Below, one piece after another: positions 66-33,100 of a stretch of 56,964 nucleotides of DNA (its first letter is position 1; every line of letters starts with the position of its first letter). Made by a program: the position numbers and the translations under genes. Below the pieces are notes generated by a model. That model made no database searches. It was not told where the DNA came from and was given only the letters and a program-made list of their open reading frames with translations. Source of the DNA: Chitinophagales bacterium (GTDB taxonomy: Bacteria > Bacteroidota > Bacteroidia > Chitinophagales > UBA2359); NCBI GenBank assembly GCA_020630635.1, contig JAHDBB010000001.1, positions 1-56,964 of the forward strand, written 5' to 3'.

Positions 66-143
66 GGATCATTAGCTCAGTTGGTTTAGAGCGCTGCCTT
101 GACAGGGCAGAGGTCACTGGTTCGAATCCAGTATGATCCACCA
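66..143 (+). tRNA. tRNA-Val (anticodon GAC); its 3' end overlaps the element attachment core
   Basis: Cloverleaf read by eye: acceptor GGATCAT/ATGATCC, D arm GCTC/GAGC, anticodon stem CTGCC/GGCAG with loop TTGACAG (GAC), T arm ACTGG-TTCGAAT-CCAGT, discriminator A140, CCA 141-143. Confidence 0.9.
126..142. repeat. attL core, 17-bp ATCCAGTATGATCCACC (tRNA 3' end)
   Basis: Identical 17-mer at 126-142, 28518-28534 and 56910-56926, spaced exactly 28392 bp. Flanks differ on the outer sides only. Confidence 0.9.
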
Positions 144-190
144 CGCAAAGCGTGAATCAACCTGCCTCATTACGTTTCAAGCCTCCCATT

Positions 191-226
191 TTGCTGCTGT
201 GTCAATTCCTTCTGACACAGCAGCAA
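191..226 (+). repeat. 14-bp perfect inverted repeat TTGCTGCTGTGTCA/TGACACAGCAGCAA (8-nt loop); candidate terminator and/or pair of integrase arm sites
   Basis: Arms at 191-204 and 213-226, followed by TTTAATTT. Each arm contains the TGTGTCA motif that is also repeated at the other end of the element. Confidence 0.6.
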
Positions 227-257
227 TTTAATTTCAATATGTTTCTGTCACTCACAA

Positions 258-1418: not shown

Positions 1419-1601
1419 TTTTTTTTTGGGGTTCGCTGTGTGATGGGAGTGCATGTGATTTCGTCTTTATGTTTTCTTAAATACAATATTTGCGGTGGTT
1501 TTGCCGTTGTTTATGGTGTGATTTGGTTGCCTTAGAACAGTAAGCTCGCTTTACTTTCTTTTATTTATTCGTCTGACAAGATTAATCAGGTTTCTTTGTG
1601 A
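1392..1601. repeat. 27-bp direct repeat (1 mismatch) at the 3' ends of two convergent genes
   Basis: GATAAGATTAATCAGGTTTCTTTGTGA at 1392-1418 (integrase C-terminus plus stop) and GACAAGATTAATCAGGTTTCTTTGTGA at 1575-1601 (antisense to the last codons of the 204-aa gene). Confidence 0.8.
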
Positions 1602-2200
1602 GTCATTTTAAAGAAATCTTCTTGAGTAATTTCTCTTGCTATCGAGTATTTGTCTATAAAACTACCTTTCCCAAAGGAGGTAAATTTATATCCGTCACAA
1701 TGGAAACCATATGGTGAAAATTCTCCAGGAGTAATGGAAAGCCCTAGTTTTTTTGCTTTTGCTATTATTTCGTTTTTGCCATTAGCTTTGTAGTTTGCAG
1801 TAAATTTGAAACTATTTTTATGTTCTTGTTGGTCATTTATCAGTCTTTCTTTATGGTGGTTGTAGGGAAAACTGTAAGTAATACTTTGTCTCGGCACTAT
1901 CATTTTATTCTCTTCTTGCTCAATGTCTGCTAGTTTCAATATTCTGATGTGTAGTCCTTTGATTATTGCGTGTCCTTTTAGTGTGAGTTGATACATCTTT
2001 GTCTTGTTTCCTCCCTTAGTTGATTTACTGGGCTTTGTGTGATGAGTTACTAAGCCTTCTTTTTCTAATGCCTTTAGGGTATTGTATATCCCTCCAAGAC
2101 TTAATTCAATGCCATATTTCGGGGCTTCTATATGTAATCCTAGTCCGTGTAAGTTTTTCTTTCTAAGTAAGCTTAATACAGCTATTTTATTTAAAGTCAT
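1586..2200 (-). CDS. PadR-like winged-helix transcriptional regulator with an unknown C-terminal domain
   Basis: N-terminus IAVLSLLRKKNLHGLGL...GGIYNTLKALEKEGLV...KMYQLTLKG fits the PadR wHTH pattern. 204 aa. Confidence 0.55.
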   Translation of the reverse strand: MTLNKIAVLSLLRKKNLHGLGLHIEAPKYGIELSLGGIYNTLKALEKEGLVTHHTKPSKSTKGGNKTKMYQLTLKGHAIIKGLHIRILKLADIEQEENKMIVPRQSITYSFPYNHHKERLINDQQEHKNSFKFTANYKANGKNEIIAKAKKLGLSITPGEFSPYGFHCDGYKFTSFGKGSFIDKYSIAREITQEDFFKMTHKET

Positions 2201-2215
2201 CTCTTCTTATTTTTT

Positions 2216-2250
2216 AAGCTTGCAGGTGTAATATAAGCACCTGCAAGCTT
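2216..2250. promoter_or_regulatory. 13-bp perfect palindrome AAGCTTGCAGGTG(9 nt)CACCTGCAAGCTT between the 203-aa and PadR-like genes; operator or transcriptional stop
   Basis: Arms at 2216-2228 and 2238-2250, 16-50 nt upstream of the PadR-like start codon (2200). Confidence 0.45.
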
Positions 2251-2257
2251 TGTTTAT

Positions 2258-2869
2258 TTAGTGGTTGTATGCAACAGCCACCAAGTAAATTTCAAAGTCT
2301 TCTAAATTATTCAGGTATTCACCAAAAAGACCAGTAGTCCACTCGATTTTATTTTCTCGTGCTTCAAAATGTAAGTCCATTTGGTCACGGTAAGATACTC
2401 CTCCTGAGTCTTCTGGACATATGAATATGTCATCATCTTCATCAATGTAAAATATGGGTTTGTTTAGGTCGGATAAATACACTTGTCCTTTATATTCTAA
2501 GATGTTGATAAAGTCAGAGTCAATCAACTGAAAGGCACATCTTCTATTGTCAATCCTGATGAAAAAAGCGATTTTGCTATTTTCTGAATGAGTTCGTAAA
2601 ATTGCCAGTAGAGAATAAAGTATTTCATCAAATCCTGAATTTATACTTAGTTCCATGACTAAATTTGTCAATGCTTCTCTTATGGCTCTTATTTCTTCTT
2701 GAAACCATGCTGGTGATGTTTTTGTATGTTCTTTCATGTTTCTTTTTAATTCGTAAAATTTATAGTAAAAGTGGATTCTTCGTGCTGTAAAGCCATCAAT
2801 TAAATAGAATGGCTTTATAGATTCCTTCTCGAGTTGTTGGATGTATTGTGGTAGGTCGGCTTTACTCAT
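2258..2869 (-). CDS. Hypothetical protein (203 aa)
   Basis: Long ORF in an operon-like array. Its start overlaps the upstream gene end by 8 nt. No motif recognised. Confidence 0.6.
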   Translation of the reverse strand: MSKADLPQYIQQLEKESIKPFYLIDGFTARRIHFYYKFYELKRNMKEHTKTSPAWFQEEIRAIREALTNLVMELSINSGFDEILYSLLAILRTHSENSKIAFFIRIDNRRCAFQLIDSDFINILEYKGQVYLSDLNKPIFYIDEDDDIFICPEDSGGVSYRDQMDLHFEARENKIEWTTGLFGEYLNNLEDFEIYLVAVAYNH

Positions 2870-3269
2870 TTTTGCGCTCTTCCTTTAATTTGTTTACTTC
2901 ATTTCTTAGATCAAGTAATTCTCTGTTGACTACCTCGAACCTTTTGAGTAAGTGGTCTGTGTCTGTAGTATTGGTGAATGTGTTGCCAACATTCTCTGAT
3001 ATTCCTAATAGTGCCTGTGAAATTGATGTCATGAAATCTCTTTCATATCCTAATGTTATCGCTATAGCCTCTAGTGCGCTTGGATGTCCGTCATCAATAG
3101 ATACTTGGTTGGCTCTAGCTAAGATTAGATTCTTTTGCAATTGAGCTGCAAGATTTAGTAAGTAGATGGATGTTTCTTGATTTGGTGTTCCTACATGGTA
3201 TTTTTTATGCAATATATCTGCTATTTCTCCATGTTCCCTTACTAGGTTATCTGTGTTATAATTGTTCAT
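2862..3269 (-). CDS. Hypothetical protein (135 aa) with a C-terminal coiled-coil tail
   Basis: ORF with the heptad-like C-terminus RFEVVNRELLDLRNEVNKLKEERK. Overlaps the next gene. Confidence 0.6.
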   Translation of the reverse strand: MNNYNTDNLVREHGEIADILHKKYHVGTPNQETSIYLLNLAAQLQKNLILARANQVSIDDGHPSALEAIAITLGYERDFMTSISQALLGISENVGNTFTNTTDTDHLLKRFEVVNRELLDLRNEVNKLKEERKNE

Positions 3270-3367
3270 TATTTGATTTTTTCTGTATGAATTAATAAGT
3301 TAACTACAATCCAGTAAAAGTTTATATGCTCATAAATATGAGTTAATGCCTTTTCTGGTGTATTCCT

Positions 3368-4441
3368 TCAAGCGTTGGAAAATTCAGTTCCATCATCATT
3401 GTCGCCAGAGAACCAATTAGCAACATCGGAACTATCAGGAGCGGGTGGCAAACATTGTAACACGTCGTTCTCTAGTTCTTTTATTCTTTCTTCTTTGTCT
3501 TTGAGCCTTGCCTCTAGGTGTTTCTTTTCTTTTTCTAATTGTTGACAGGTGTTGCTGGACGCTAACATTTTGCCTGTTAGATTGTTTTTTTCGGCTCTAT
3601 ATTCGCCTACCATTAGTTTGTAATCATCCCTTTGACTCTCTGTTAGCTTTAATATGCCTTTTAGATTGTCAATTGTTGCTGCTTGTGCCTTTGTATTAGA
3701 TAGTGTTTCCTCTGTCTCCTCTACTAAGGTCTTTATTCTTTCCTCCAAATGCCTCTTTTCGTCTTTCAATGTCCCTACTTCTGCTTTGTATTTGTTGCTT
3801 ATTTGCTCCAGTTGCTTATAGTCTTTGCCTATTTTCTTGAAATTGTTTTCTAGGGTTCTGTAATCCTCTTGGAGCTGCTTTATTTGATTAATTCCATCAG
3901 TTGCCAATGTCATTCCTTCTTTTTTGAGCATAGCAATAATATTACCTTGCTCTTCTACTTTTTTAGTCAATGTATCACCGCTTAAAATATGGTCTCTTAT
4001 TTGATCTTTGTATCTTTTGATCGTGCCTTCTCGTAATTCAATTCCAGCCTTTGCCTCTGCGGTTACTCTGTCAAGTTCTTCTTTGTTGAACTCGTTCTGT
4101 TTTTTTACTTTTTGGAGTTCTTCCTTTAACGCATTTAATTCAAGTAGATATTTGTCTCTTTCTATTGTTGCGTTATTGTATTCCTTTTCAAGCTGTTCTA
4201 CTTTCAAGATTTCCTTTATTTTGTAATCTTCTCTTGTAAAGAATTTCAAAAAAATATCTAATCCTTCCTGTGCTTTTTCTGTACTTCCCATGCCCGTTAG
4301 ACGCTCAAATAGGTTGATTATTGGCATATCTAATGAATCAAGAAAGTCACTAGCTAAGTCGTAAAAGTCATCAATTTGACGATCTAAATAATCGGCTGCT
4401 TGCTTTGCTTCTTCGGTTGAAATATCAAAGGTAAATTTCAT
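3368..4441 (-). CDS. Coiled-coil protein (357 aa), function unknown
   Basis: K/E/L-rich heptad sequence through most of its length. Acidic C-terminal tail. Confidence 0.7.
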   Translation of the reverse strand: MKFTFDISTEEAKQAADYLDRQIDDFYDLASDFLDSLDMPIINLFERLTGMGSTEKAQEGLDIFLKFFTREDYKIKEILKVEQLEKEYNNATIERDKYLLELNALKEELQKVKKQNEFNKEELDRVTAEAKAGIELREGTIKRYKDQIRDHILSGDTLTKKVEEQGNIIAMLKKEGMTLATDGINQIKQLQEDYRTLENNFKKIGKDYKQLEQISNKYKAEVGTLKDEKRHLEERIKTLVEETEETLSNTKAQAATIDNLKGILKLTESQRDDYKLMVGEYRAEKNNLTGKMLASSNTCQQLEKEKKHLEARLKDKEERIKELENDVLQCLPPAPDSSDVANWFSGDNDDGTEFSNA

Positions 4442-4504
4442 TTTTGTTTTAATTTTTAATTTTTAAAATTAATGTGTAGAAGGACAGAGATTTATTTAAA
4501 TAAC

Positions 4505-4708
4505 TTAATCTCTGTTTTTTAATAATATACTCAAGTTGAGATTATGTCTTTGTAGGTTTTTATTTTGCTTTTTAAGTTCCAATATCTCCTCCTGTAGCTC
4601 AAGTCTGTCCAGCTTCTCTTTTACCCATAGTTTTCTATATTCCTCTGTCTCAGATTCAGCCTCTTGCAACTCTGTCTTCAAAAAAGCAATTGTGTCCTGT
4701 GGATTCAT
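4505..4708 (-). CDS. Small coiled-coil protein (67 aa)
   Basis: Leucine-zipper-like LQEEILELKKQNKNLQ. Lies directly downstream of a terminator and upstream of the 357-aa gene. Confidence 0.5.
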   Translation of the reverse strand: MNPQDTIAFLKTELQEAESETEEYRKLWVKEKLDRLELQEEILELKKQNKNLQRHNLNLSILLKNRD

Positions 4709-4750
4709 TTTTTACAATGTATTGCAGGTTAAATAATTTTAATACATCCT

Positions 4751-4789
4751 TTAAAAACCCTTGTCCGCCCAAGTACGGACAAGGGTTTT
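4751..4789 (-). terminator. Rho-independent terminator after the 329-aa gene
   Basis: Minus strand: AAAACCCTTGTCCG-loop-CGGACAAGGGTTTTT, a 12-14-bp GC-containing stem followed by a T run. Overlaps the stop codon. Confidence 0.75.
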
Positions 4790-5777
4790 ACGGGGTAGGG
4801 CAGGGCTGTTGATAAAGTTCGTCACGTACAAATTCTGCGAATAAATACATGGTGCCTTGCTCCTCTTTTAGTAAGTTCAAATCAATTAAATTTGACTTGG
4901 AAAGCTTCTTTTTTAGGAAGGTCATTCTTCCTAATTTCCTACGTAGGGAATCAGGTTTTAATCCTAATTCTTTTGCTACGTCATTGTATGGTATCCAATT
5001 TCTATCAATTCCAGTTAGTACTTCTTTAGTCTTGGTATTAGTATCTAATTCTATCTTGATAGTTTCCTCTGGTTGTTTCTTTCTTTGCCTTTTTAGTTTT
5101 CTAAATTGATAGGAGTCTAATTCAATCCCATCAACTTTTTTTAAGGCTTCCTCTAAGCGTGTGTCATTGTAATAGATCGGTTGGAATGTTGGGGCAGTTT
5201 GTGCTGTATTCGCAAAATGTCTGCAACACAATTCAAGGTCGTGGCGTGTGCGTACTTGTTTTGCGTTCCAAAAATCCGTTCTCAACATTTCAATCATTTC
5301 TGTGATGCTGTTGGTTTTGCCTGCTCCAATGACTCCAGCAACGAATAAAAATCCGTGTGGTGTCATTATTTCGGGCAATTCCTTGTTTTCGCCAATCTTA
5401 ATCCTTGTAATGGACTTTTCGTAATGCTCACATACCAAAAGCCTTTTTCCGTTTTTTTCCACTATTACTTTCATTCCTCTTGTCTCATTTGGTTTGTTTC
5501 TTGACAATTGGAGTTTTGATCTATTGCCCAACAGCTCGAAGCTCCAAAGCCAATCTAAGTACCTGGTAATATAGTATTGTACAGAACTTAGTTTGTATAA
5601 GAGATAGGAGACTATTGGGAGAATGATAAATGACACCAATGCTATTGTTAATGTGGCTCCCAAAATCACTGTAGAAAGATAGGTGACAGGTGTGTATTGA
5701 TCGTGTGTTTCTGCAATGATGATTAAGGAGATGACATTGATGGCTAGTATAATGTGGATGGTCTTGAATGATCTCAT
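4788..5777 (-). CDS. Membrane-anchored protein with a P-loop (Walker A) motif
   Basis: Two N-terminal hydrophobic helices (IILAINVISLIIIA; VILGATLTIALVSFIILPIV), then Walker A VAGVIGAGKTNS. No clear Walker B seen. C-terminus has an HTH-like segment. Confidence 0.6.
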   Translation of the reverse strand: MRSFKTIHIILAINVISLIIIAETHDQYTPVTYLSTVILGATLTIALVSFIILPIVSYLLYKLSSVQYYITRYLDWLWSFELLGNRSKLQLSRNKPNETRGMKVIVEKNGKRLLVCEHYEKSITRIKIGENKELPEIMTPHGFLFVAGVIGAGKTNSITEMIEMLRTDFWNAKQVRTRHDLELCCRHFANTAQTAPTFQPIYYNDTRLEEALKKVDGIELDSYQFRKLKRQRKKQPEETIKIELDTNTKTKEVLTGIDRNWIPYNDVAKELGLKPDSLRRKLGRMTFLKKKLSKSNLIDLNLLKEEQGTMYLFAEFVRDELYQQPCPTP

Positions 5778-5781
5778 AAGC

Positions 5782-6138
5782 CTATATTGAAAGGAGCATT
5801 AGCAGCCCTATTATATTACAGGCTATGCTGGCTAAAAGACTTATGATGAGTACCTTAATCAACCAAAGTGGTGTATTAGGATGATGATTGTGGTTGATAA
5901 TGGTGTTGTGGCTGTTCTTATTGCTGGTATTGGATGGGGGAGGTATGCCGTATAGTGGTTGACCTTGTGTTCCTCTAATAATTGGATAATTAGCCTCTAA
6001 ATGGCTTTTTAATTGTCTTTTAGTGATAAACTTTTTGCCTGGTAAATTTACCTGCTCAATTGGTAAATAAACCAATTCTGGAATGAGGTTCATAATGCGT
6101 TGATTTGTGTTTTTTAGAGAAAAGAAATCCGTAGGCAC
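5782..6138 (-). CDS. Small protein with a C-terminal transmembrane anchor
   Basis: C-terminus LWLIKVLIISLLASIACNIIGLLMLL. A hairpin TCCGTAG/CTACGGA (6128-6148) covers the first ATG, so the true start is probably M16 (6093). Confidence 0.5.
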   Translation of the reverse strand: MPTDFFSLKNTNQRIMNLIPELVYLPIEQVNLPGKKFITKRQLKSHLEANYPIIRGTQGQPLYGIPPPSNTSNKNSHNTIINHNHHPNTPLWLIKVLIISLLASIACNIIGLLMLLSI

Positions 6139-6362
6139 TCACTACGGATTCATACAAGAGGAGTAAACAGTATGCAAATGAAATAATGTTGAGTGCAGCT
6201 CAAAAATAAACTATTGTAATTTTAATTGCAAGTTTATTTATAATTTTATTTACAATCTTATAAAATATTTATAGAAAATTCCGGCTATTTTTATTTCTAC
6301 AGTTATTTTTTACTAATTTTAGAGCGACAAAACAAACACAGAATATTTTTGCGGAATTGGTA

Positions 6363-6465
6363 TATCTTTGTGCCAAATCTGTAAATTTATTAACATGGAA
6401 GTCGTTTCTCACTTTGTCCAGTCTGTGTCTGGGTGTCGCATCGTGGGGGCGGCTTTCTCCATTTT
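6363..6465 (+). promoter_or_regulatory. Bacteroidota-type -7 promoter box plus a conserved structured 5' leader (copy A)
   Basis: TATCTTTG (6363-6370) fits TAnnTTTG. The following ~95 nt are nearly identical to the reverse complement of 23551-23663. The central hairpin CCAG..CTGG is replaced there by CCGT..ACGG. Confidence 0.6.
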
Positions 6466-6469
6466 ATGA
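6395..6469 (+). CDS. Possible 24-codon upstream ORF within the leader (MEVVSHFVQSVSGCRIVGAAFSIL)
   Basis: The ATG sits in the conserved core. Its stop TGA overlaps the downstream start (ATGA). A homologous 23-codon ORF is in leader copy B. Confidence 0.25.
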   Translation: MEVVSHFVQSVSGCRIVGAAFSIL

Positions 6470-6801
6470 GTACCATGTTGAAACAAAATGATTTAAAAGC
6501 GAATGACACTAGCTTAGTAGTAACTTACAATGAAGGCAAAGGGAAAGACAGTTACTTGATTGAACGATTAGCACCTTTGAGCTATGATCAATTAAAGAAA
6601 GACTTTGAAACCAACACTTTCCTATTGTTTGAGACTATGGACGCAAAGACATTATCAAATGCATTGCTCCAAAAGGATGCACTAGAAGCCATTGTGAGGG
6701 GTGGCATTGATGAAGAATTAATACATGAGTTGGTACGGCTGCAATTGCTGTTCGATATGCTGCGAACTTCTGAACAGTCAGCAGAATTATTGAGGGAATA
6801 G
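6466..6801 (+). CDS. Helical ~111-aa protein, paralog of 23221-23550; function unknown
   Basis: Alignable with the 109-aa protein (LSYDQLKKDF / MSYEDLKHEF; LVRLQLLFDMLRTSE / LVYLQLLYDLLSTAD). The track's GTG start at 6433 lies in the conserved leader, so ATG 6466 is preferred. Confidence 0.7.
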   Translation: MSTMLKQNDLKANDTSLVVTYNEGKGKDSYLIERLAPLSYDQLKKDFETNTFLLFETMDAKTLSNALLQKDALEAIVRGGIDEELIHELVRLQLLFDMLRTSEQSAELLRE

Positions 6802-6824
6802 ATTTATTGGCTTAAAATGAGAAA

Positions 6825-6859
6825 AGGCATCTGGGGGTTTTCCTAGATGCCTTTTTTTT
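6825..6859 (+). terminator. Rho-independent terminator
   Basis: AGGCATCT(12 nt)AGATGCCT followed by TTTTTTTT. Confidence 0.75.
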
Positions 6860-7000
6860 GTTTTATGTATCTTTTATTTTTATTATTTGATACTCAGTTT
6901 TTTTTTGGTTTTTATTTTATTGTTGATTTTCAATGTTTTACATTTTTTCTCCTGGTGAGCTGGTCCGTTCCATTATTTTTTTTTACTAAGCGTAAGGAAT

Positions 7001-7582
7001 TTAAATCAATTTCCATCCATCATTAAATTGCTGCAAAGAAATACCATTATTTTTCCCATTTTCCATTTCAGAAATAGCTATTCCTATCCTGGATAAATTA
7101 GCATAATTGAAATCAAAAAAATCATTCCTTCCAATACCTGTTTTCCTAGACACATAATTAATATAGGCTTCCTGATCCGTAGCAGACCAACGTTTAATCA
7201 ATCCGTTTAAGTTTTTCAGGTTGTGCTTGTAATAATAGGTGTTCAATGTTTTTATCATTGCCCTAGTGCCATAAGCGAGGCAAATAAATTGCTCAAAGGT
7301 GCCATCAGTATTATTACTTTCAGGAACTTTGCCCAGCCAATCATTGGCCGCTTCTATCTTAATATTTCCAACATTGTTATTTCTCCAGCCACGTTTTAAG
7401 CCAAATCGACCTAAGTAAGATTCACAAGCAGTTTCTGTTGATTCTGGAAGGTTGGGTATGATTGGGGGTAGGGTAGGGTTAAGGGGTTTTGACCTCCTTT
7501 TGTTCTCGATCAGGAAGAGAAAAAGAAGCGAAATGGACAACAAAAAGTAAACATAAATATAATTGAATTTCATTGCTACCAA
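7001..7582 (-). CDS. Membrane-anchored protein, possibly cell-wall-acting (family not recognised)
   Basis: N-terminal TM YIYVYFLLSISLLFLFLI, Pro-rich linker PLNPTLPPIIPNLP, then a globular domain (GWRNNNVGNIK). Translationally coupled to the two peptidase-like genes upstream. Confidence 0.6.
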   Translation of the reverse strand: MVAMKFNYIYVYFLLSISLLFLFLIENKRRSKPLNPTLPPIIPNLPESTETACESYLGRFGLKRGWRNNNVGNIKIEAANDWLGKVPESNNTDGTFEQFICLAYGTRAMIKTLNTYYYKHNLKNLNGLIKRWSATDQEAYINYVSRKTGIGRNDFFDFNYANLSRIGIAISEMENGKNNGISLQQFNDGWKLI

Positions 7583-8169
7583 CGTCTTACTGGACCAATA
7601 TCATAATGGATAAAGGTATTATACTTGCTCAATCCACCGTCTTTGATTTTTCCGCTTTTAATTAATCTGTTTATCGTAGCCCACAAATCATCTAGGCTCA
7701 ATCCCTTCGCTTTTATATCGGCCGCTTGTCCGCACATGTGGCGGCTTTGCTTGGCACCTCCTGCATTTTCATTGTGCATAGGGGTACGATAACCAGAATT
7801 AACGATTATAGGAACGCCTATTGTATCCCGTATAATCTGTAACTCATTCATTAGTTGCTGTATATTGCCACGAATAGAGGTAGGTGGTGCAGTTCCCTTA
7901 GAATTAAATTCTGATAGCTTGAAATTCTTTGTAAATGCATCTGGTGCGTAGTTCAATGGACAGAAATCAGGAACATTGTCACTTCCTATTGGTGTAGGAC
8001 TTGGAGTAGGGTTAGGAATCGGTGGTGTACTTGGATCAGGTGTATCTGTCTCATTATACTCATTTTCCTGGTTAATTACTTGACTATTTTTAAGCAATAC
8101 CAATACAGCCAAGAGAATCAAGGACAGGAAAAAGGTGGTCAATATAATAATAATGTCGGAGCTTTTCAT
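7576..8169 (-). CDS. Membrane-anchored peptidase M15-type zinc metallopeptidase (putative peptidoglycan hydrolase)
   Basis: N-terminal TM, Pro-rich linker TPDPSTPPIPNPTPSPTP, then SGYRTP, SRHMCGQAAD (SxHxxGxAxD motif) and FIHYD (third His ligand). Confidence 0.75.
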   Translation of the reverse strand: MKSSDIIIILTTFFLSLILLAVLVLLKNSQVINQENEYNETDTPDPSTPPIPNPTPSPTPIGSDNVPDFCPLNYAPDAFTKNFKLSEFNSKGTAPPTSIRGNIQQLMNELQIIRDTIGVPIIVNSGYRTPMHNENAGGAKQSRHMCGQAADIKAKGLSLDDLWATINRLIKSGKIKDGGLSKYNTFIHYDIGPVRRW

Positions 8170-8837
8170 ATCATCACATTTCGACTCTGAAATACATCAT
8201 AATATACGACTGTAGAATTATAGCCAATCCCTCCAGCAATCACTTCGCCACGTAACTGCATTTCTTTTACCACTTGGTATAATTCAAGTGGCGTAATAGT
8301 GTCACTATAGAAGGTACAAGCTCCACCACATGTATGATTCCTTTCGCCTCCCTCCAGCTCGTAATTTTCATAACTCAAATAGCCTGTTTCGATCCTTAAA
8401 GGCAAAGTGTAAACTGGCCCTGGAAAAGCTTGATTTACACCTGTTCTAATCTTCTGCATTTGAGCCATTAATAAATTGAGATTGCCACGCAATGCCTTTG
8501 GTGGCAGCTTGCCAGACATATCCTTAAATTCAGAAGACTTAAAATTTTTCTGATTCTGGAATGAGTTGGCATGACTAGGCGTACACCAAGTAGGTACCAG
8601 ATTGTCAATATTAGCTGGAGGAGCTGGTGGCGTTGCTGGTGGCGTTGGTGTTTGTCCAGGTGTATTATTGGGTGTAGGTAGATCAGGAGTTTCTGGAACG
8701 CCTGGCGTATTGCTGCCCAAAAGAAATTCTTTGAAGGTCTTACCACTAAATAACCAAGCCGTAGCAATGCCGATAAAGGCAAGAGCTAGGAATGATGTAA
8801 ATATAATTGCTACTGAACTACTATTGTTATTGGTCAT
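8166..8837 (-). CDS. Membrane-anchored M15-like paralog with a degenerate metal site
   Basis: Same architecture (TM, linker TPPATPPAPP) and collinear motifs, but NHTCGGACT has T in place of the Asp ligand and VVYYD has Y in place of His. Confidence 0.65.
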   Translation of the reverse strand: MTNNNSSSVAIIFTSFLALAFIGIATAWLFSGKTFKEFLLGSNTPGVPETPDLPTPNNTPGQTPTPPATPPAPPANIDNLVPTWCTPSHANSFQNQKNFKSSEFKDMSGKLPPKALRGNLNLLMAQMQKIRTGVNQAFPGPVYTLPLRIETGYLSYENYELEGGERNHTCGGACTFYSDTITPLELYQVVKEMQLRGEVIAGGIGYNSTVVYYDVFQSRNVMI

Positions 8838-8845
8838 GGCTTGTT

Positions 8846-9199
8846 TTATGGTGTGTAGTGATGCACGAACACAGCCCCATTTGTTGCATCTAGTTCGCTT
8901 ATCTTACTGGTTACATAATACCTAGAACTGTCATTCCTGTTGTCTTGCCATGAATGCGAAAAGCCTTTAAGTAACCCTATGAACTGACTGCTGTCCTTGC
9001 TTTTCCACATAACAACCCCAGACAAGACAGTAAAACTATATTGCTGTACTCCTACAGGAATATCATACTTACTACCTTCGATAATAGTATCTATGATTGC
9101 TCCAGCGTCTTTTTGCTGTGGCTCCTTTGCACAAATTTCGATACAAGGAACCGTCTGTCCTTGATCATTACAGGTAAATCCAGGAGGTAAGTTATTCAT
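8846..9199 (-). CDS. Hypothetical protein (117 aa)
   Basis: ORF in a tight operon, with an 8-nt overlap with the upstream gene. No motif recognised. Confidence 0.6.
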   Translation of the reverse strand: MNNLPPGFTCNDQGQTVPCIEICAKEPQQKDAGAIIDTIIEGSKYDIPVGVQQYSFTVLSGVVMWKSKDSSQFIGLLKGFSHSWQDNRNDSSRYYVTSKISELDATNGAVFVHHYTP

Positions 9200-10100
9200 C
9201 TTGCATCAACATTAATTGTATGATCTGGTTAGTGGCTTGGTTTAGGTTTTTTCCTGGCGTTTGTCCTACAGAAATTAAGAAGATATTTAGTTCCTCTAAT
9301 GGAAAATTTTTCAATTCTTTTTTAGGCAAATCCAACCAAAAAAATACCTCATTAATTTTACGCTTATCATCAATCATTAACTGGTTGTGATAAGCGTAAA
9401 ATTTTAGTATTTCTTCTGATTCATTTTGTCTCAAAAATGCTCTATTAGTTAAGTTTCTACTAGTAGATAATTTTGAGTTATTACTAGTGTTGGTACATTT
9501 TTGAGCGTCATTTGAATCAGCTCCGTTATTCCCAAAAGTTGCATAGGGAAATAATGGAGCCGTTACCGTATTGGTGCTAGTGTAGAATGTGGTATAGGTG
9601 CCTGTTCCTGCTGTTGTCTCGATCTGGAACTCAATCTGATTACTAGTATTAATAAGCAATCTTAGCCTTTGCCCACTAGTTAGATTTACGCCACTAGTGT
9701 AAGGAGCCGCCCACGTATTTTCGTAAGCTCTTACACCTGTATTAGCGTAAGAATAAACGGCAAAGTCTGCATTATTCCAGCTAGTGGAACCAGTAGGATT
9801 GTAAGCTAATCCCACTACTTGCCTAATCGCACTAACAGACCAACTAAAACTATCACCTGGATTAGCTAAGGCATTACTATTGTCGTAAGCTCCACTATTC
9901 CAATTGCCTGTATTATTGATCTTAGTAGCGTTGTTTCCACTAGTAGAAACGTTGGCATTGTTGGCAGTCCAAGCAATATTGATGCATTGCTCTTGCGGCT
10001 CCGTTGTTGGAATGCCGCAATAGAATGTTAATGATTGTGCCTGGAGATATTGGCAGCACAGAACACCTAATAATATTGATATGAGAAACTTAAATTTCAA
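9192..10100 (-). CDS. Secreted Asn/Thr/Ser-rich protein (302 aa)
   Basis: Signal peptide MKFKFLISILLGVLCCQYLQAQ. The N-terminal two thirds are beta-rich (WN/YxN repeats). Confidence 0.65.
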   Translation of the reverse strand: MKFKFLISILLGVLCCQYLQAQSLTFYCGIPTTEPQEQCINIAWTANNANVSTSGNNATKINNTGNWNSGAYDNSNALANPGDSFSWSVSAIRQVVGLAYNPTGSTSWNNADFAVYSYANTGVRAYENTWAAPYTSGVNLTSGQRLRLLINTSNQIEFQIETTAGTGTYTTFYTSTNTVTAPLFPYATFGNNGADSNDAQKCTNTSNNSKLSTSRNLTNRAFLRQNESEEILKFYAYHNQLMIDDKRKINEVFFWLDLPKKELKNFPLEELNIFLISVGQTPGKNLNQATNQIIQLMLMQDE

Positions 10101-10109
10101 TACAAAAAG

Positions 10110-10649
10110 TTAATAGGTTGTAAATGTGATCAATGCACAGCCTTGCAATGCAAACACCTCCGTTGTTTGTGGCGTGTCGTAAAAGTGCCTATATCCATTT
10201 CTAGGATCTGCATTTGCAATGGTTGCAGTTACAGGTAGTTGGTGCTGTGGGCTACTAGGACTTTTCACTGACACCATACCCTTTATTGTAGTAATAGAAT
10301 AAGACAAAACATTAGCAGGAATTGTAAAATTTGCACCTTCTATTAAGTAGCTATGAAAGCCGCTTTGTATGGTGTCGGCTGGTGCTTCGTATGATGGACA
10401 TGCGTACAGATTAACACCTTTGGGCAGTTCATCTGTAATATTTCCCGTACTAGTATCCTCATATAGTACTGTGCCTTCCCCTGTCTTAGGGTCGGTTTCG
10501 TAATGAATGATGTAGACCACCCCTAGACTGTCACACTTGCAAGCGATCACCTCAGAATCATCTAAGGAAAAGTTACTGCCACTTTGGGCATTTGCCATAC
10601 CAATTGACAAGGCAAAAAAGGAAAAGATAAGAAATAAATACTTTTTCAT
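10110..10649 (-). CDS. Secreted protein (179 aa)
   Basis: Signal peptide MKKYLFLIFSFFALSIGMANAQ. Beta-rich mature part. Confidence 0.65.
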   Translation of the reverse strand: MKKYLFLIFSFFALSIGMANAQSGSNFSLDDSEVIACKCDSLGVVYIIHYETDPKTGEGTVLYEDTSTGNITDELPKGVNLYACPSYEAPADTIQSGFHSYLIEGANFTIPANVLSYSITTIKGMVSVKSPSSPQHQLPVTATIANADPRNGYRHFYDTPQTTEVFALQGCALITFTTY

Positions 10650-10665
10650 ATTGTGTATAAATAGA

Positions 10666-11094
10666 TTATGGGATTAAAATTCTTTTATGATTGTGTGCAT
10701 CTGCACGGAAATCTATACCGTGCTTTTTCAATTCATCAACTACATCTTGACTTAAAAGCACATCAGTATAAATATCATAGTCACTAACTTGCTTTCTACT
10801 TTTGAATCTCTGCCTAACATACCTTATATATCTAGGGGTACGCACATCAACATAAGAACCTGTAACCCTTGAACCACAAGCCCACACTTTAGAATTTTCA
10901 TTAAACTGTTTAATAATAGCTTTAGCGAGCTGAAATCTTTCCTTTGTTTTTTTGGGGAACTTTGAAAAGGAATCAACTTTTCTAGTTTCCTTAATGACAT
11001 TCCACACATTCCTATAAGCTATCATTTCAGGAGACTCTTGCCATTTTTTTCTATCACTTAAATTGCGAATAAATAAAGCCCTAACGCCTAACAT
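10666..11094 (-). CDS. Basic 142-aa protein with a possible Pol-beta-type nucleotidyltransferase motif
   Basis: CGSRVTGS ... SDYDIY resembles the hG[GS]...DxD signature, but the spacer is unusually long (~25 aa). Weak call. Confidence 0.5.
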   Translation of the reverse strand: MLGVRALFIRNLSDRKKWQESPEMIAYRNVWNVIKETRKVDSFSKFPKKTKERFQLAKAIIKQFNENSKVWACGSRVTGSYVDVRTPRYIRYVRQRFKSRKQVSDYDIYTDVLLSQDVVDELKKHGIDFRADAHNHKRILIP

Positions 11095-13499
11095 ATGATT
11101 GAATTTATATTACTGACATGCCCGACGGTTACGGCACCTTCTTGACAGCCAGGAATGTAAACTGGTACACCCAAACGCACACGAATATTAACGCATTGAC
11201 CAGGCGCAAGCGAACCCTCCCAAATATTAGTATTAGGGTCATAATTACCAATACTAGCGGTGTAGGTAGTTCCAGTAGGTATATATTGTGCGCCGTTAAG
11301 GATTAATATTACATCGACTTGAAACTGTGTGATTATTTCTGTCGTATCATTGCATACTATACTTACCCACTCGTCTACAAAACAATCATCACCAGACATT
11401 GCATTATTAATACTCAAGCCACAATTACTGCCATTATTAGGGATACAGTATAATGTTTTGGTGTCTATTACTTGGCTGCTTCCATCTACTTCGGGAAAAT
11501 AACTAGTGCCAAAAGCCCCACCTTCAACCCAATTAACCGCACCACTATTCACATTTCTATTTTCATAGTATAATAGATCCTCCCATTTATAGGTTGGTAC
11601 AAGCTGATTTACTCCATCAATAATCCTGTTACTGGAAACCACTATAGAGAACTCCCAACAAGCAGGCAACCAAAACCGAAAGGTTTGTTTTTCTTCAGTA
11701 TTTCCTGTAGTAGATACAGGAACACCAGGAATAGCTGTTGCATAATCTAACATGTCAGTATTAGCAAGTATATGAGTCAGCACATCAGACATTGAAGAGA
11801 CATAAGGACTACCACCAATATTGATCAAGTTATGCACTAGGTACATAGGATTGGTTACTAACTCATTGCCATTTAGCACGAATGATGTAACAGCCATGTT
11901 ATTGACTGTTAATTCACTAATTCTAGTACTATTTATGTCGATATAATTTTCAACTAGCTTGAAATTGCCATCACATGGAGCCTCTTCCTTGCATTTGTCA
12001 AGCCCGAAATTCATTTCTACAGGATCACAACCATCGACCGTAACCGTAATTGTAGCATCACCATTACCTGAAACAGTAACTGTATTACTGTCTAATTCAC
12101 CACTAACAAGCGTTAGACCTTCGCCCAAAGTCCATTGATAAGAATCAACCGTAAGCGTACTATTACTAATCACAACTGAAATAGTACAGCTACCATCACC
12201 ATTATCAGTAACAGAAGAAATAATCATGTAATCACACTCATCCCAGCACAATTCCCCTTGCACCGTATCACAGCCACAATCAGCCTTGAAATAAGCGCAA
12301 CCGCCTAAGCCTGCGTCAATCGCATTAGACCACAGCCAATTATTGGGAGCAGTCGGTACTGGTTGGAGCGTTAAATCATTGTTTCCGTCTGCATTAACTC
12401 CAGTTGCCCAACCAATATTGTTTAGACACCATAACTTTTCAGGTATTGCCGCCAAGTCAACCATTAAGATATAAGAATCTGTTCCAGCTCCGTAAGGCTG
12501 CCTAATAATAGGCACCTCGAAAGTGCTAGGCTCACATGGCACACCGCAAGGTTCTACGGTATCATCACATGTTTCACATCTGTCTAACGGCACCTCGAAA
12601 AGAGGCACGTCTAGCGTAAGTGTGCTGCCATCAGCAATACAAGTAACATCAATAGTACAATCAAGCACACCACAACCATCAATTGTGACCTTAATCGTGT
12701 TGCTATCAATCAGTTCACTTGTAGTAACACCTATGGTTTCATCATCTTCACTTTCACAACTGAAATTCGCATCAACGAAATTGTGACTAGTACTATTAAG
12801 ATTCAAGAGCCAATGGCCTCTAGTTCCACCGTCATACAATCCACTACTAGAAACCACATAACCTAGATAACTATCATCACAATCTAAGATGGTATAGTTT
12901 GCCGTGTCCAAGTACACTTGATATATGACTGTTCTGCCATCACTAGAAACGAATTTCACACGGAATGTAGGAGCTAGTTCAATTAGACTGCCTACACTCT
13001 GATTAATAACTAGAGTATTACCAGTCCCAACAGTAGCCCATGCATCAGCAGGACTATTACTAACATACCAGGTACCACTACCAGCATAACCTGATCCACC
13101 ATCAAGCGGAACAAAAGAGAATTCATGAACGCAAAATTGCTCTAGTGCATTACTCGTGTTCCCTCCTATTGCTGATTGTCCCATAAATATACCTAATGGT
13201 GCTGCTGTTTCACTTCCTTGCTCACCAGGCACCCATTCCCAAGAAAGGGCATTTTCTCCAGGAACACATTCACTAAGTACACATTCACCATCGACCAACT
13301 CATAACCATCAGAACAACCTGTAGGGCCGCCAATAGGAACACAATCTTTGCCAACTTGCTCGAATCCAGGAGGACAGCAACTATCATCGGGAACACAATC
13401 TTTGCCAACTTGCTCGAATCCAGGAGGACATTCGCAAGCGTTAACTTGATCACCTGTCCCATTATCATTATCTATTGGATTGTTGTTGTCGTCGTTCAT
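11088..13499 (-). CDS. Large Cys-rich protein (803 aa), putative virion spike/adhesin
   Basis: About 37 Cys and no signal peptide. N-terminal duplicated CPPGFEQVGKDCVP, Ig-like segment (TISVVISNSTLTVDSYQWTLGEG...TITVTVDGC), DUF11-like C-terminus (GNYDPNTNIWEGSLAPGQCVNIRVRLGV). Confidence 0.75.
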   Translation of the reverse strand: MNDDNNNPIDNDNGTGDQVNACECPPGFEQVGKDCVPDDSCCPPGFEQVGKDCVPIGGPTGCSDGYELVDGECVLSECVPGENALSWEWVPGEQGSETAAPLGIFMGQSAIGGNTSNALEQFCVHEFSFVPLDGGSGYAGSGTWYVSNSPADAWATVGTGNTLVINQSVGSLIELAPTFRVKFVSSDGRTVIYQVYLDTANYTILDCDDSYLGYVVSSSGLYDGGTRGHWLLNLNSTSHNFVDANFSCESEDDETIGVTTSELIDSNTIKVTIDGCGVLDCTIDVTCIADGSTLTLDVPLFEVPLDRCETCDDTVEPCGVPCEPSTFEVPIIRQPYGAGTDSYILMVDLAAIPEKLWCLNNIGWATGVNADGNNDLTLQPVPTAPNNWLWSNAIDAGLGGCAYFKADCGCDTVQGELCWDECDYMIISSVTDNGDGSCTISVVISNSTLTVDSYQWTLGEGLTLVSGELDSNTVTVSGNGDATITVTVDGCDPVEMNFGLDKCKEEAPCDGNFKLVENYIDINSTRISELTVNNMAVTSFVLNGNELVTNPMYLVHNLINIGGSPYVSSMSDVLTHILANTDMLDYATAIPGVPVSTTGNTEEKQTFRFWLPACWEFSIVVSSNRIIDGVNQLVPTYKWEDLLYYENRNVNSGAVNWVEGGAFGTSYFPEVDGSSQVIDTKTLYCIPNNGSNCGLSINNAMSGDDCFVDEWVSIVCNDTTEIITQFQVDVILILNGAQYIPTGTTYTASIGNYDPNTNIWEGSLAPGQCVNIRVRLGVPVYIPGCQEGAVTVGHVSNINSIIC
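13336..13430. repeat. Perfect 41-nt direct repeat with 54-nt period inside the 803-aa gene
   Basis: GGAACACAATCTTTGCCAACTTGCTCGAATCCAGGAGGACA at 13336-13376 and 13390-13430. Encodes CPPGFEQVGKDCVP twice. Confidence 0.9.
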
Positions 13500-15901
13500 T
13501 TTTTCGATTGAGATTTGATTTGTGTTTCGGGTTCAGCTCCAGAGTTTGGAGTCAAGTCAACGTCATTGTTTTTTCCTTGATCTTTTCCATCTTCTGGACA
13601 ATTGGACTTACTTAACCAAGCAAGCGCAACAGAATCAAAAGGGACTGTATTACCTCCGACATTAGTAATGTAATCAGCAATAATTTCATCAATAGAAAAT
13701 CCGTCAATACCAACCACATCTAAGCCCTGTAACTCGAACCGTGAAAAAGCTCCAGCACTTGGCCAGAAATTGCCGAAGGTCGCATTAACAGCGGTAACAG
13801 CAGGTAATGACAACAATCCTAATACTGTATTAATGGCTGTCAATAATTCAGCCTCGAAGTTAGGATTTATCTGAAGATAACATTCTCCAGGCGCACCTGT
13901 AGGAGCTTGCGAGAACATATTAACGGGTGTTGCTATTCCGTATGTACTACCATCCACGACAATAGCCGTGACCTGACCTCCTGGAAACGATCCACTTTCA
14001 GAATAACAGCTATTTTGTGCCAAACCCAGCAGTCTAGGTACGGTTGGATCGACAAAAGAGAATGTACAATCTTCATTCCCTGTACCACCTGAACCACCAT
14101 CTGGACATTCAGGAAAGCAAGCCCCGTAATCCTCATTACAATAAAATCCAGGAGGACAACTCCCATCAGGGCCGCACGGTGGGTAGCAATACCCACCAAT
14201 ACAAATCCAACCCTCTGGACAACCCTCAGAGCAAGGAGGGAGGCAAATTCCATTCACACATAACCAACCAGGAGGGCATTCACTAGTATCTGAACAGATT
14301 GGAAGACAAATACCATCGACACAAATGAAACCTTCAGGACAGATACCATCTAGGCATTCTGGTAAGCAATACCCACCAACACAGACAAAACCAGGAGGAC
14401 ATTCACCATCCTCTGAACATGGAGGAAAGCAAATACCACCAATGCAAACCCAACCCTCTGGACAATCTGCATCATCGGTACAGATTGGAAGGCAGAGACC
14501 ATTGATGCAGGTATAGCCATCAGGACAATCTGCATCATCTGTGCATGTCTGGATACATTCACCAGCCACCAAAATAGAACCATCAGGACATTCTGGAACA
14601 ACATCACCTACTGTAATACAGATTTCTCCGTAGCAACACAATGGCTTCTCTGTGCATTGTGCGACATAGTAGAAACAGAACTCACCAACAAAATCACTAG
14701 GGAAATTGAATTCGATTAAGCCCGTATCATTGATACTAATATAAGCTTGGTATTCAACAGGAATTTGTTCTAATCTATAAACAGGCTTACAACAATCGGT
14801 ACCATTACAATCAAGTTGATGAGTAAACACACCAGAACAATCTTCTGGAGTATACATCAACAGATAATCTTCACAGCAATGATTCATTTCGATATTGATA
14901 ACGGAATAGCATTGCTTACCAGAATAGCATGTAGTAACGATTGTAAAGCTATCACCACCCCAAGCGCAGTCATCAGGATTATAATCCCAGCTACCATCCT
15001 CATTGATGGTAACTGTCCCTTGTGTTGGGTCTGCACCAACGGTATAGACTGGATCATGACAACAATCCCATGTACATGTTGGTGGTGGCTCTTCACTAAT
15101 TGGAGCGGCTTTGGCTCCAGGATCAGCTGTAATTGTATATGTCTGATCTCCACAGCAATTACCTACAGTTAGGCAAATATTGAAATAGCATTTAGATTTC
15201 CCACAATGGACATAGACAGGAAAACAGAGTTCACCTAAGAACTTATCTGGTGGTGTAATACTGTATGAACCATCACTATTGACAATAATACCATCAACAC
15301 TTTCATTACTTGGCTCATTATTGTCTAGTGCGCTATTACATGTGGCTGTTGTTCCTTCGCTGTGTGTTGGATCAGGAGAAAGTGAGTAAGTCACCATTCC
15401 ATTACAACAATCACCAAAAGGATTGCAATCTAATTGCCCTGTAATTGTCTCATTTCCTGCTACATCAATGTATAGGTCATCACATCCATCACATCTTCCA
15501 ACCTCCCAACATACAAATCTATAAGTATTGTAAGCAGCAATGTCACATTCAATAAGGATAATAGCACAATCTTGCCCGATAAACCCAGCATTAGGTGTAT
15601 AAACCAAATTACCTTCAACAACTTCTAATGTGCCATTACTCACATTGCTTAAAATATTGTACTGCACATTATTACAGCAATCATCTAAGCTACAATCACT
15701 AATAATATCACCTTCCCAACTGCCATCAATAGGAATAGCAAGCTCTAATGTATCACACAACTTAGTATAGCCATCTGGAATGATGGACTTATCATCTAAG
15801 GCACTTGCGCCAGACCCTGCACCAATTGCAGTATTGTTGCCACTTGGAGGATTACTAGTACCGTAACCATATGTATTACCTGAAGGGAAAAACCCAAACA
15901 T
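13496..15901 (-). CDS. Very Cys-rich protein (801 aa): adhesin-type modules plus EGF-like repeats; putative virion spike/receptor-binding protein
   Basis: About 71 Cys by my count and no signal peptide or TM. Four ~95-aa modules with DCC...Y.P..F.G..C motifs, then eight CPxGxxCxxGxCxPxC repeats. ATGA overlap with the next gene. Confidence 0.8.
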   Translation of the reverse strand: MFGFFPSGNTYGYGTSNPPSGNNTAIGAGSGASALDDKSIIPDGYTKLCDTLELAIPIDGSWEGDIISDCSLDDCCNNVQYNILSNVSNGTLEVVEGNLVYTPNAGFIGQDCAIILIECDIAAYNTYRFVCWEVGRCDGCDDLYIDVAGNETITGQLDCNPFGDCCNGMVTYSLSPDPTHSEGTTATCNSALDNNEPSNESVDGIIVNSDGSYSITPPDKFLGELCFPVYVHCGKSKCYFNICLTVGNCCGDQTYTITADPGAKAAPISEEPPPTCTWDCCHDPVYTVGADPTQGTVTINEDGSWDYNPDDCAWGGDSFTIVTTCYSGKQCYSVINIEMNHCCEDYLLMYTPEDCSGVFTHQLDCNGTDCCKPVYRLEQIPVEYQAYISINDTGLIEFNFPSDFVGEFCFYYVAQCTEKPLCCYGEICITVGDVVPECPDGSILVAGECIQTCTDDADCPDGYTCINGLCLPICTDDADCPEGWVCIGGICFPPCSEDGECPPGFVCVGGYCLPECLDGICPEGFICVDGICLPICSDTSECPPGWLCVNGICLPPCSEGCPEGWICIGGYCYPPCGPDGSCPPGFYCNEDYGACFPECPDGGSGGTGNEDCTFSFVDPTVPRLLGLAQNSCYSESGSFPGGQVTAIVVDGSTYGIATPVNMFSQAPTGAPGECYLQINPNFEAELLTAINTVLGLLSLPAVTAVNATFGNFWPSAGAFSRFELQGLDVVGIDGFSIDEIIADYITNVGGNTVPFDSVALAWLSKSNCPEDGKDQGKNNDVDLTPNSGAEPETQIKSQSKK
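14102..14590 (-). repeat. In-frame array of ~8 EGF-like Cys repeats (~57-63-nt period)
   Basis: aa 438-600: TDDADCPDGYTCINGLCLPIC / TDDADCPEGWVCIGGICFPPC / SEDGECPPGFVCVGGYCLPEC / ... The periodicity also generates spurious ORFs in other frames. Confidence 0.85.
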
Positions 15902-15904
15902 ATT

Positions 15905-16291
15905 TTATTTTTTTACAACCAAATAAATTAAAACAATGAATAGCAAAAGAAAAAAGACGGCACCAACCAGCACTAAAGGGCTTATGGCTCCGTCGTCATT
16001 GTTTCCATTGTTATTGTTTCCGTCATTGTTTCCATTGTCATTATTAGGATTGTCATTACCATTCAACACACCATCAATAACCTCGTCAATTTGACCAGGC
16101 AAGACAATAGGAACAGGTGCGCCACCAACTAGATCAGGATCAGGAAAGTCTGCTGGTAAAATCTCTGTTGCTGGATTGACGATAGCGCAATACTGAAGAC
16201 AATCCTCCCTAAATTTTCGCCAATTAGAAAAGAAAGGATACCTAGCCCTACACTTGCTCGCACAATTACGCCTAGTTTGTCTGTCGCTCAT
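15905..16291 (-). CDS. Tail-anchored membrane protein with an Asn/Asp low-complexity tract
   Basis: N-terminal Cys/Arg-rich segment, NDNPNNDNGNNDGNNNNGNNDD tract, C-terminal TM LVLVGAVFFLLLFIVLIYLVV. Confidence 0.65.
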   Translation of the reverse strand: MSDRQTRRNCASKCRARYPFFSNWRKFREDCLQYCAIVNPATEILPADFPDPDLVGGAPVPIVLPGQIDEVIDGVLNGNDNPNNDNGNNDGNNNNGNNDDGAISPLVLVGAVFFLLLFIVLIYLVVKK

Positions 16292-16313
16292 TTTACCAAC
16301 TTTATAGTTTCTC

Positions 16314-16445
16314 TTATAACCTTTGCAAATGCGCCTTTATATCTTGTTTGTAGACAAGATCAAGCATTTCACCCCTCCAAGCAGCATCTACACGACCGCC
16401 TTCTTTTGGAGTAGTGTCAAATAATTTCTTGGGAAATCTAATCAT
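16314..16445 (-). CDS. Small ORF (43 aa, MIRFPKKLFDTTPKEGGRVDAAWRGEMLDLVYKQDIKAHLQRL)
   Basis: Translated by hand; below the track cutoff. Its ATG overlaps the upstream TAA by 1 nt, and it fills an otherwise empty gap in a tightly packed operon. Confidence 0.4.
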   Translation of the reverse strand: MIRFPKKLFDTTPKEGGRVDAAWRGEMLDLVYKQDIKAHLQRL

Positions 16446-32833: not shown

Positions 32834-32896
32834 TTTTGTTTTAATTTTTAATTTTTAAAATTAATGTGTAGAAGGACAGAGATTTATTTAAATAAC

Positions 32897-33100
32897 TTAA
32901 TCTCTGTTTTTTAATAATATACTCAAGTTGAGATTATGTCTTTGTAGGTTTTTATTTTGCTTTTTAAGTTCCAATATCTCCTCCTGTAGCTCAAGTCTGT
33001 CCAGCTTCTCTTTTACCCATAGTTTTCTATATTCCTCTGTCTCAGATTCAGCCTCTTGCAACTCTGTCTTCAAAAAAGCAATTGTGTCCTGTGGATTCAT
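32897..33100 (-). CDS. Small coiled-coil protein, copy 2
   Basis: Identical translation to 4505-4708. Confidence 0.5.
   Translation of the reverse strand: MNPQDTIAFLKTELQEAESETEEYRKLWVKEKLDRLELQEEILELKKQNKNLQRHNLNLSILLKNRD

Follow-up and report, generated by a model that had tools for sequence, protein, structure and literature searches.

The locus and its cysteine-rich protein

The window analysed here is the whole of a stretch of 56,964 nucleotides (nt) of contig JAHDBB010000001.1. It consists of a tRNA-Val(GAC) gene, preceded by 65 nt of flank, and then a 28,392-bp integrative element that is present as two identical copies in tandem. Our subject is a minus-strand gene of this element at 13496..15901, which encodes a protein of 801 amino acids (aa) with 71 Cys residues and without a signal peptide or transmembrane (TM) segment. 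Because the whole element is tandemly duplicated, the gene is present twice in the window, and its second, identical copy lies at 41888..44293. Three independent Logan assembly contigs (SRR14415273-75) encode exactly this protein as well; no publication that names these accessions was found.

The Cys enrichment of this protein is extreme and patterned. Cys accounts for 71 of the 801 residues (8.86%), against 86 of 6502 residues (1.32%) in the other 33 open reading frames (ORFs) of the element. Given the composition of these other ORFs, the binomial probability of finding at least 71 Cys in 801 residues is only ~2e-35. His, by comparison, contributes 5 of the 801 residues.

The N-terminus of the protein, MFGFFPSGNTYGYGTSNPPSG..., has no hydrophobic core. 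A hydropathy scan detected no N-terminal hydrophobic stretch, Sec signal, lipobox or TM segment, and the highest 19-residue Kyte-Doolittle mean was 1.74, at residue 687. The NCBIfam search revealed no type IX secretion C-terminal domain or other sorting domain at E <= 1. Nor can the ORF be extended upstream, because the previous gene stops 3 nt ahead of its ATG. The first 58 residues (15728..15901, minus strand) are rich in Gly, Ser and Asn and match no family; possibly, they form a tail that anchors the protein to a particle.

Tandem-95 modules

Residues 59-436 comprise four consecutive modules, all encoded on the minus strand. Module 1 (residues 59-148; 15458..15727) is an immunoglobulin (Ig)-like domain of the tandem-95/Big_9 type with eight Cys. 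Module 2 (residues 149-248; 15158..15457) is a tandem-95 module with a 20-aa insertion, and also has eight Cys. Module 3 (residues 249-341; 14879..15157) is the most canonical tandem-95/Big_9 domain of the four, with six Cys and an additional CC pair in the linker. Module 4 (residues 342-436; 14594..14878) is tandem-95-like and the most divergent, with eight Cys and three more in the linker. The number of Cys is therefore even in every module (8, 8, 6 and 8).

The family assignment is supported by several searches. Pfam Big_9 (PF17963) matched the protein with 41.3 bits (gathering score 23.6) and Pfam Cadherin_5 with 31.2 bits (gathering score 26.5). The NCBIfam model tand_rpt_95 (NF012211) matched with an E-value of 7e-12, at a score of 45.1 bits that lies under its whole-protein cut-off of 90 bits. 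Furthermore, a tandem-95 profile seeded with module 3, and rebuilt solely from Cys-free units of database proteins, gave exactly four matches in the protein. These were located at residues 80-112, 207-231, 283-324 and 390-414, with independent E-values of 3e-9, 7e-5, 4e-15 and 0.05, respectively. Module 4 is thus marginal by homology, yet it has the internal Cys pattern of the other modules. In a MAFFT alignment all four modules were in register with canonical tandem-95 units. The first-pass annotation of this DNA had described a protein of 801 aa with about 70 Cys, lacking a signal peptide and TM segment and containing four ~95-aa modules reminiscent of cadherin-like/tandem-95 repeats. Our results agree with this description on each of these points, the fourth module being the marginal one.

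The positions of the Cys residues within the modules are conserved. Every module carries a C-x3-5-CC motif together with a Y/I-x-P-x3-F-x-G signature. Where canonical units have D-x-D-G-D-x-L-x-Y, the modules have D-C-C-x-x-x-x-Y, such that GD is replaced by CC. The canonical acidic D-x-D-G-D loop is absent from all four modules, which have D-CC instead. Other conserved Cys columns are found 3-5 residues before the CC pair, after F-x-G-x-x and at the canonical D-G position, and one or two further columns lie in the last strand.

The best database matches of the protein were tandem-95 or 'VCBS' adhesins, which aligned with query residues ~66-345 (30-35% of the query) at 23-30% identity. The four ~95-aa units share with tandem-95/Big_9 adhesins the core G-T-x-x-x-N-x-D-G-S-x-x-Y-T-P-x-x-x-F-x-G-x-D. 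However, these adhesins contain 8-12 units, whereas our protein has only 4. They are exported cell-surface proteins, whereas our protein lacks a signal peptide and is encoded in a provirus context. In addition, the canonical relatives are poor in Cys (0-0.6%), in contrast to the 36 Cys in residues 49-428 of our protein, which occupy conserved columns. On sequence grounds, the modules thus appear to be a cysteine-stapled variant of the tandem-95 fold. No second example of such a module was found in this analysis.

Short four-cysteine repeats

The modules are followed by an array of short repeats of the TIGR04201/DUF7107 type at residues 437-600 (14102..14593, minus strand). The first-pass annotation had listed eight repeats here, and had compared them with both epidermal growth factor (EGF) domains and Myxococcus-type Cys repeats. 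Seven regular CPxGxxCxxGxC units of ~21 aa could be recognised, at residues 453-595, while the first of the eight, CPDGSILVAGEC at residues 438-449, is degenerate. Each regular unit contains four Cys with the spacing C-x5-C-x5-C-x4-C, and the units recur with a period of 19-23 aa.

The Myxococcus comparison proved to be the appropriate one. TIGR04201 (Myxo_Cys_RPT) matched three stretches of the protein with 28.3 bits, above its cut-off of 25. Pfam DUF7107 scored 19.8 bits, below its gathering score of 24.6, and the identity of the repeats to Myxococcota DUF7107 lipoproteins was 31-43%. The EGF-like label has to be abandoned. No Pfam EGF family matched at E <= 0.01, the EB module reached 16.6 bits where 24.3 are required, and the unit has 4 Cys in 21 aa rather than 6 in ~40 aa.

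TIGR04201 was defined on the Cys-rich region after the PA14 domain of TraA, a secreted receptor of Myxococcus, and the authors of that study expected the TraA repeat to be disulfide-bonded (Pathak et al., 2012, PMC3325183). Our search for literature on DUF7107 found no paper. All five cellular homologues carrying the repeat are Myxococcota-type proteins with signal or lipoprotein N-termini, and hence the repeat normally works outside the cell. Our protein resembles the TraA stalk in its tandem units of ~21 aa and in the pattern D/E-x-C-P-x-G-x-x-C-x-x-G-x-C. It differs from TraA in that it has no PA14 domain, MYXO-CTERM or signal peptide, and in that its gene belongs to a mobile element whose host has a low GC content.

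At the DNA level, the copies of the repeat recur every 57-63 nt and share 60-81% identity, and Tandem Repeats Finder called no array in them. This rules out a recent expansion, and indicates that the repeat array is old.

An AlphaFold model of residues 430-801, made from the single sequence, folded residues 439-600 into consecutive beta-hairpins with a predicted local distance difference test (pLDDT) score of 83-95. Residues 437-600 are therefore predicted to form a stalk, built as a string of beta-hairpins. A Foldseek search of the array against the PDB returned nothing below an E-value of 0.1; the weak neighbours were fragments of knottin, Dkk, VWF and EGF. When the PDB was searched by sequence, matches were at chance level only (fibrillin, E 0.05). 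In BFVD, Foldseek aligned this array of predicted hairpins with Cys-repeat 'membrane proteins' encoded by giant viruses (Cedratvirus, Pithovirus, Tetraselmis virus 1), with E-values of 4e-8 to 1e-5 and probabilities up to 1.0. However, the TM-scores of these matches were low (0.07-0.26), and the proteins concerned are transmembrane proteins of eukaryotic viruses. This similarity probably lies at the level of the repeat.

Occurrence of the repeat in phages

The first-pass annotation had called such Cys arrays unusual in a bacterial virus. This is indeed the case, as only two distinct phages among 50,697 phage records carry the repeat; these two show that it is nevertheless not unprecedented in virions. 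In Synechococcus phage S-SCSM2R (PQ898602), three near-identical units are found in the 'baseplate hub subunit and tail lysozyme' (L004 1099..3522). In cyanophage PSS2 (NC_013021), the repeat occurs in the 2612-aa protein gp084 (L014 5199..13037), which is encoded directly downstream of the tape-measure and baseplate genes. The TraA-type Cys repeat appears to have been undescribed in phage tail proteins until now.

The 21-aa Cys repeats of these tail-tip proteins are nearly identical to those of our protein (e.g., CSDDSNCPEGYKCVDGKCVLV). Moreover, both proteins belong to the virion, are synthesised in the cytoplasm without a signal peptide and come into contact with the host envelope. By analogy, the two precedents favour a host-contact role for the repeat. 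Conversely, they belong to tailed phages of cyanobacteria, their repeats sit inside unrelated proteins (a gp5-like hub and a giant protein of 2612 aa), and they lack tandem-95 modules, so that the similarity to our protein is limited to the repeats.

C-terminal domain and the search for relatives

The remainder of the protein, residues 601-801 (13499..14101, minus strand), consists of an orphan domain followed by a hydrophilic tail. A phmmer search with these residues against 1.84 billion representative proteins gave no match, and no domain was matched either. The AlphaFold model of this part has a low confidence (pLDDT 26-56) and is unreliable. Full-length relatives of the protein were found neither in a search of 5.8 billion proteins nor in IMG/VR or the GTDB genomes.

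The late-type unit and the neighbouring genes

The gene lies in the middle of a minus-strand unit of ~13 kb, with a terminator-like hairpin at either end (20107-20134 and 6819-6858). In order of transcription, the unit encodes a 231-aa orphan protein, a block of small TM proteins, the 801-aa protein, an 803-aa protein, a 142-aa protein, two signal-peptide proteins, a 117-aa protein and three lysins.

The 803-aa protein (11088..13499, minus strand) is also rich in Cys, with 37 residues (4.6%), and has no family, phage or PHROG match. The start of its gene overlaps the stop codon of the gene for the 801-aa protein (ATGA). This overlap, together with the gap of 3 nt to the preceding gene, points to translational coupling of the gene for the 801-aa protein. 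The N-terminus of the 803-aa protein contains three CPPGF-type Cys repeats, in which CPPGFEQVGKDCVP occurs twice. The two copies are encoded by an exact 41-nt direct repeat with 54 bp spacing (13336-13376 and 13390-13430), which has the appearance of a recent duplication and is the point at which all three Logan contigs break. The 803-aa protein is a likely partner of the 801-aa protein. The GC content over the two Cys-rich genes is 41-42%, compared to ~35-38% elsewhere in the element.

Upstream of the two Cys-rich genes, a block of small proteins (15905..19233, minus strand) comprises eight single-TM proteins (128, 92, 52, 42, 144, 64, 91 and 169 aa), a 256-aa CxxC protein and a basic peptide of 36 aa. 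This peptide (16445..16555) consists mostly of Lys and Arg. The block resembles the membrane-protein blocks of internal-membrane phages. Its 128-aa member (15905..16291, minus strand), directly upstream of the gene for the 801-aa protein, has two CX3C motifs (NCASKC and DCLQYC), a low-complexity tract of Asn, Asp and Gly, and a TM anchor at its C-terminus, and might serve the Cys-rich proteins as a membrane anchor or as a redox partner. The 256-aa orphan (16562..17332, minus strand) carries CxxC-type motifs (CCEGC and CTPC) and a Lys-rich C-terminal part, and gave no family or phage match. From these motifs, it may provide a thiol-redox or metal site beside the Cys-rich proteins.

The 231-aa orphan protein (19245..19940, minus strand) is encoded by the first gene after the strong, terminator-like hairpin at 20107-20134, which separates it from the gene of a P-loop ATPase. 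It is an unproven candidate for the capsid protein. Its single-sequence AlphaFold model failed, with a pLDDT of 31.7.

At the other end of the unit lie three lysin-type genes (7001..8837, minus strand), each with an N-terminal TM anchor. They encode a match to the endolysin family phrog_873 (7001..7582), an M15 peptidase (7576..8169) and a diverged M15 paralogue (8166..8837; 29% identity and E 3e-17 to the M15 peptidase). Two proteins of 302 and 179 aa (9192..10649, minus strand) have clear N-terminal signal peptides, unlike the 801-aa protein, and match no family. They may be exported proteins that serve in superinfection exclusion or as lysis accessories.

The integrated element

The element has integrated at the tRNA-Val(GAC) gene (66..143, plus strand), the 3' end of which contains the 17-nt core of the attachment (att) site. 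This core, ATCCAGTATGATCCACC, occurs at positions 126, 28518 and 56910. Positions 126..28534 are identical to 28518..56926, at an offset of 28,392. The two copies may reflect a tandem double lysogen, or else the assembler may have gone twice round an excised circle. In view of the tandem copies and the intact att sites, the provirus is apparently active. Exact matching of the tRNA against GTDB found nothing. An empty att site was not found in metagenomes, where nine contigs share the 3' half of the tRNA; their tRNA is 85% identical and they carry no element gene.

Besides the late-type unit, the element encodes a tyrosine integrase (258..1418, plus strand), for which no plasmid match was found, a DnaG-Toprim/DUF5906 primase-helicase and a PadR-like regulator. 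It also encodes a stand-alone P-loop ATPase of 206 aa (20200..20820, minus strand) with the Walker A motif GVRGTGKTT, which is a candidate genome-packaging ATPase. Among 5.8 billion proteins, the ATPase and the 231-aa protein matched only themselves. Likewise, tblastn against phages gave no match for the ATPase or for the 231-aa, 256-aa and 803-aa proteins. Family searches detected no thiol oxidase or thioredoxin encoded by the element.

PHROGs and Pfam searches recognised no terminase, portal, HK97 capsid or tail protein in the element. Only the primase and the two Cys-rich proteins reach 400 aa. All other ORFs are shorter, and hence there is no gene of the size of a terminase or portal. Judging from this gene content, a tailed phage is very unlikely. 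The identity of the 801-aa protein as the tail fibre of a tailed phage was rejected, as the element has no terminase, portal, HK97 capsid or tail matches.

The host is probably a member of the Bacteroidota. This is suggested by the scarcity of Shine-Dalgarno-like motifs (3 of 35 genes), by the A-rich upstream regions, and by the best phage matches of the primase, which were fecal, Flavobacterium, Porphyromonas and Cellulophaga phages.

A possible attachment spike

We favour, with confidence that is evenly balanced, a reading in which the 801-aa protein is a particle-surface (vertex or spike) attachment protein of a temperate, probably tailless, membrane-containing virus that integrates at tRNA-Val. 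The role of a receptor-binding spike, for which the first-pass annotation had already called the protein the obvious candidate, is plausible because the gene lies mid-operon, between the genes for small membrane proteins and the lysins, in an element that resembles a tailless virus. The host-contact part of this reading is further supported by the cyanophages, since both precedents are host-contacting virion parts made in the cytoplasm.

From N- to C-terminus, the protein would consist of a flexible Gly/Ser/Asn-rich tail, four Cys-stapled Ig-like modules, a rigid hairpin stalk of ~160 aa and an orphan domain of 200 aa. Lacking a signal peptide, it would be made in the cytoplasm, with its translation coupled to that of its neighbours in the late operon, and would then be assembled onto the particle, probably together with the 803-aa Cys-rich protein. 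When lysis exposes the particle to oxidising conditions, the Cys residues would pair into disulfides. These would lock the projection in a rigid state that resists proteases and in which at least one domain is displayed to a receptor on the host surface.

PRD1- and PM2-type genomes encode a small ATPase, many small membrane proteins, projection proteins and lysins. In gene content, the element resembles such phages through its putative structural operon, which combines a small packaging-type ATPase with many small membrane proteins. No jelly-roll capsid protein was recognised in the element. The likeness of our protein to the vertex spikes of PRD1 (P5/P2) and PM2 (P1), and to the adenovirus fibre, is functional only, in the sense of an elongated modular projection. 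No similarity in sequence or fold to these spikes was detected, and they are not rich in Cys.

Several points weigh against the spike reading. The viral nature of the element is argued from its gene content alone. No capsid protein was recognised, as the 231-aa and 256-aa candidates are without homologues, and the 206-aa ATPase matches generic P-loop families only. PHROGs gave no match for the 801-aa protein or for any of the neighbouring structural genes. The failure to find full-length relatives leaves no comparison of conserved and variable parts of the protein. In addition, the C-terminal model is too unreliable to point to a receptor-binding domain, and the Cys residues could bind metal instead of forming disulfides.

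Alternative explanations

The late-operon position of the gene would fit equally well with a virion structural protein that does not bind the receptor, such as a decoration or cement protein, a vertex scaffold or a membrane-penetration device, while the 803-aa or another protein recognises the host. The S-SCSM2R precedent points in this direction, because a baseplate hub/lysozyme is a cell-puncturing rather than a receptor-binding component, and so does the 803-aa neighbour, which is equally large, Cys-rich and orphan. Yet, it is adhesion and recognition proteins that typically contain tandem-95/cadherin-like Ig arrays and TraA-type stalks, and no enzymatic or membrane-active domain was detected in the 801-aa protein. 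We consider this explanation unlikely. It is less likely still that the element is not viral at all. It would then be an integrative mobile element or a satellite, with our protein as cargo, for instance a released matrix or aggregation factor, or a polymorphic toxin with a C-terminal effector. Such an explanation would account for the lack of a capsid, portal or terminase homologue in the element, and the tips of toxins, like the last 200 aa of our protein, are often orphan. However, the same unit ends in three lysin-type genes, and the small stand-alone ATPase and the block of single-TM proteins are also at odds with a non-viral element. Conjugation, secretion or immunity genes were not detected in the element. 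The protein has no secretion signal, and the gene downstream of it encodes the 803-aa Cys-rich protein instead of a small immunity protein.

The closest sequence relatives of the protein are cellular surface adhesins and secreted lipoproteins, which might suggest an adhesin of lysogenic conversion that is displayed on the host cell surface to the benefit of the lysogen. We regard this as improbable, because the protein lacks a Sec signal, lipobox, TM segment and any type IX or other sorting domain, and because its gene appears translationally coupled within a long late-type unit, unlike a moron, which would be transcribed separately. Finally, the Cys residues might bind metal (Zn or Fe-S), in which case the protein would work intracellularly in a reduced state. 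Synthesis in the reducing cytoplasm without export signals, and the presence of CC and CxxC-like spacings, would be consistent with metal binding. In contrast, both repeat families are of extracellular types, the Cys are not accompanied by His, no metal-binding family was matched, and the structures that come closest, if only weakly, to the repeat array are disulfide mini-domains. This makes metal binding highly improbable, and a disulfide-locked attachment spike remains the reading that we prefer.

Implications

Both repeat families of the protein, tandem-95 and TraA-type, are already known. What appears to be new, from the sequences compared here, is the Cys-stapled tandem-95 module, the combination of such modules with TraA-type repeats and an orphan domain in one protein without a signal peptide, and the completely orphan provirus around it.

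A more far-reaching interpretation, which we offer only tentatively and hold to be rather doubtful as a whole, is that the element offers a first view of a lineage, undescribed so far, of viruses that are temperate and tailless, have an internal membrane and infect Bacteroidota-like hosts. The vertex of these viruses would be a hetero-complex of two disulfide-locked proteins of ~800 aa. In the 801-aa protein, Cys staples would have taken the place of the calcium-type acidic loops of the tandem-95 fold, and oxidation on release would act as a maturation switch that rigidifies the spike. That the element may mark an unsampled tailless-virus lineage is suggested by the lack of detectable relatives, among billions of proteins, of the candidate capsid protein, of the ATPase and of the C-terminal domain of the 801-aa protein. 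As an integrated and apparently active provirus, the element is amenable to experiment.

If our reading is correct, a virus has joined two extracellular repeat families in one protein and added Cys staples to the first of them, despite folding in the cytoplasm. The protein would then be a natural case of redox-triggered hardening of a virion attachment device, and would offer a ready-made scaffold that is both rigid and modular.

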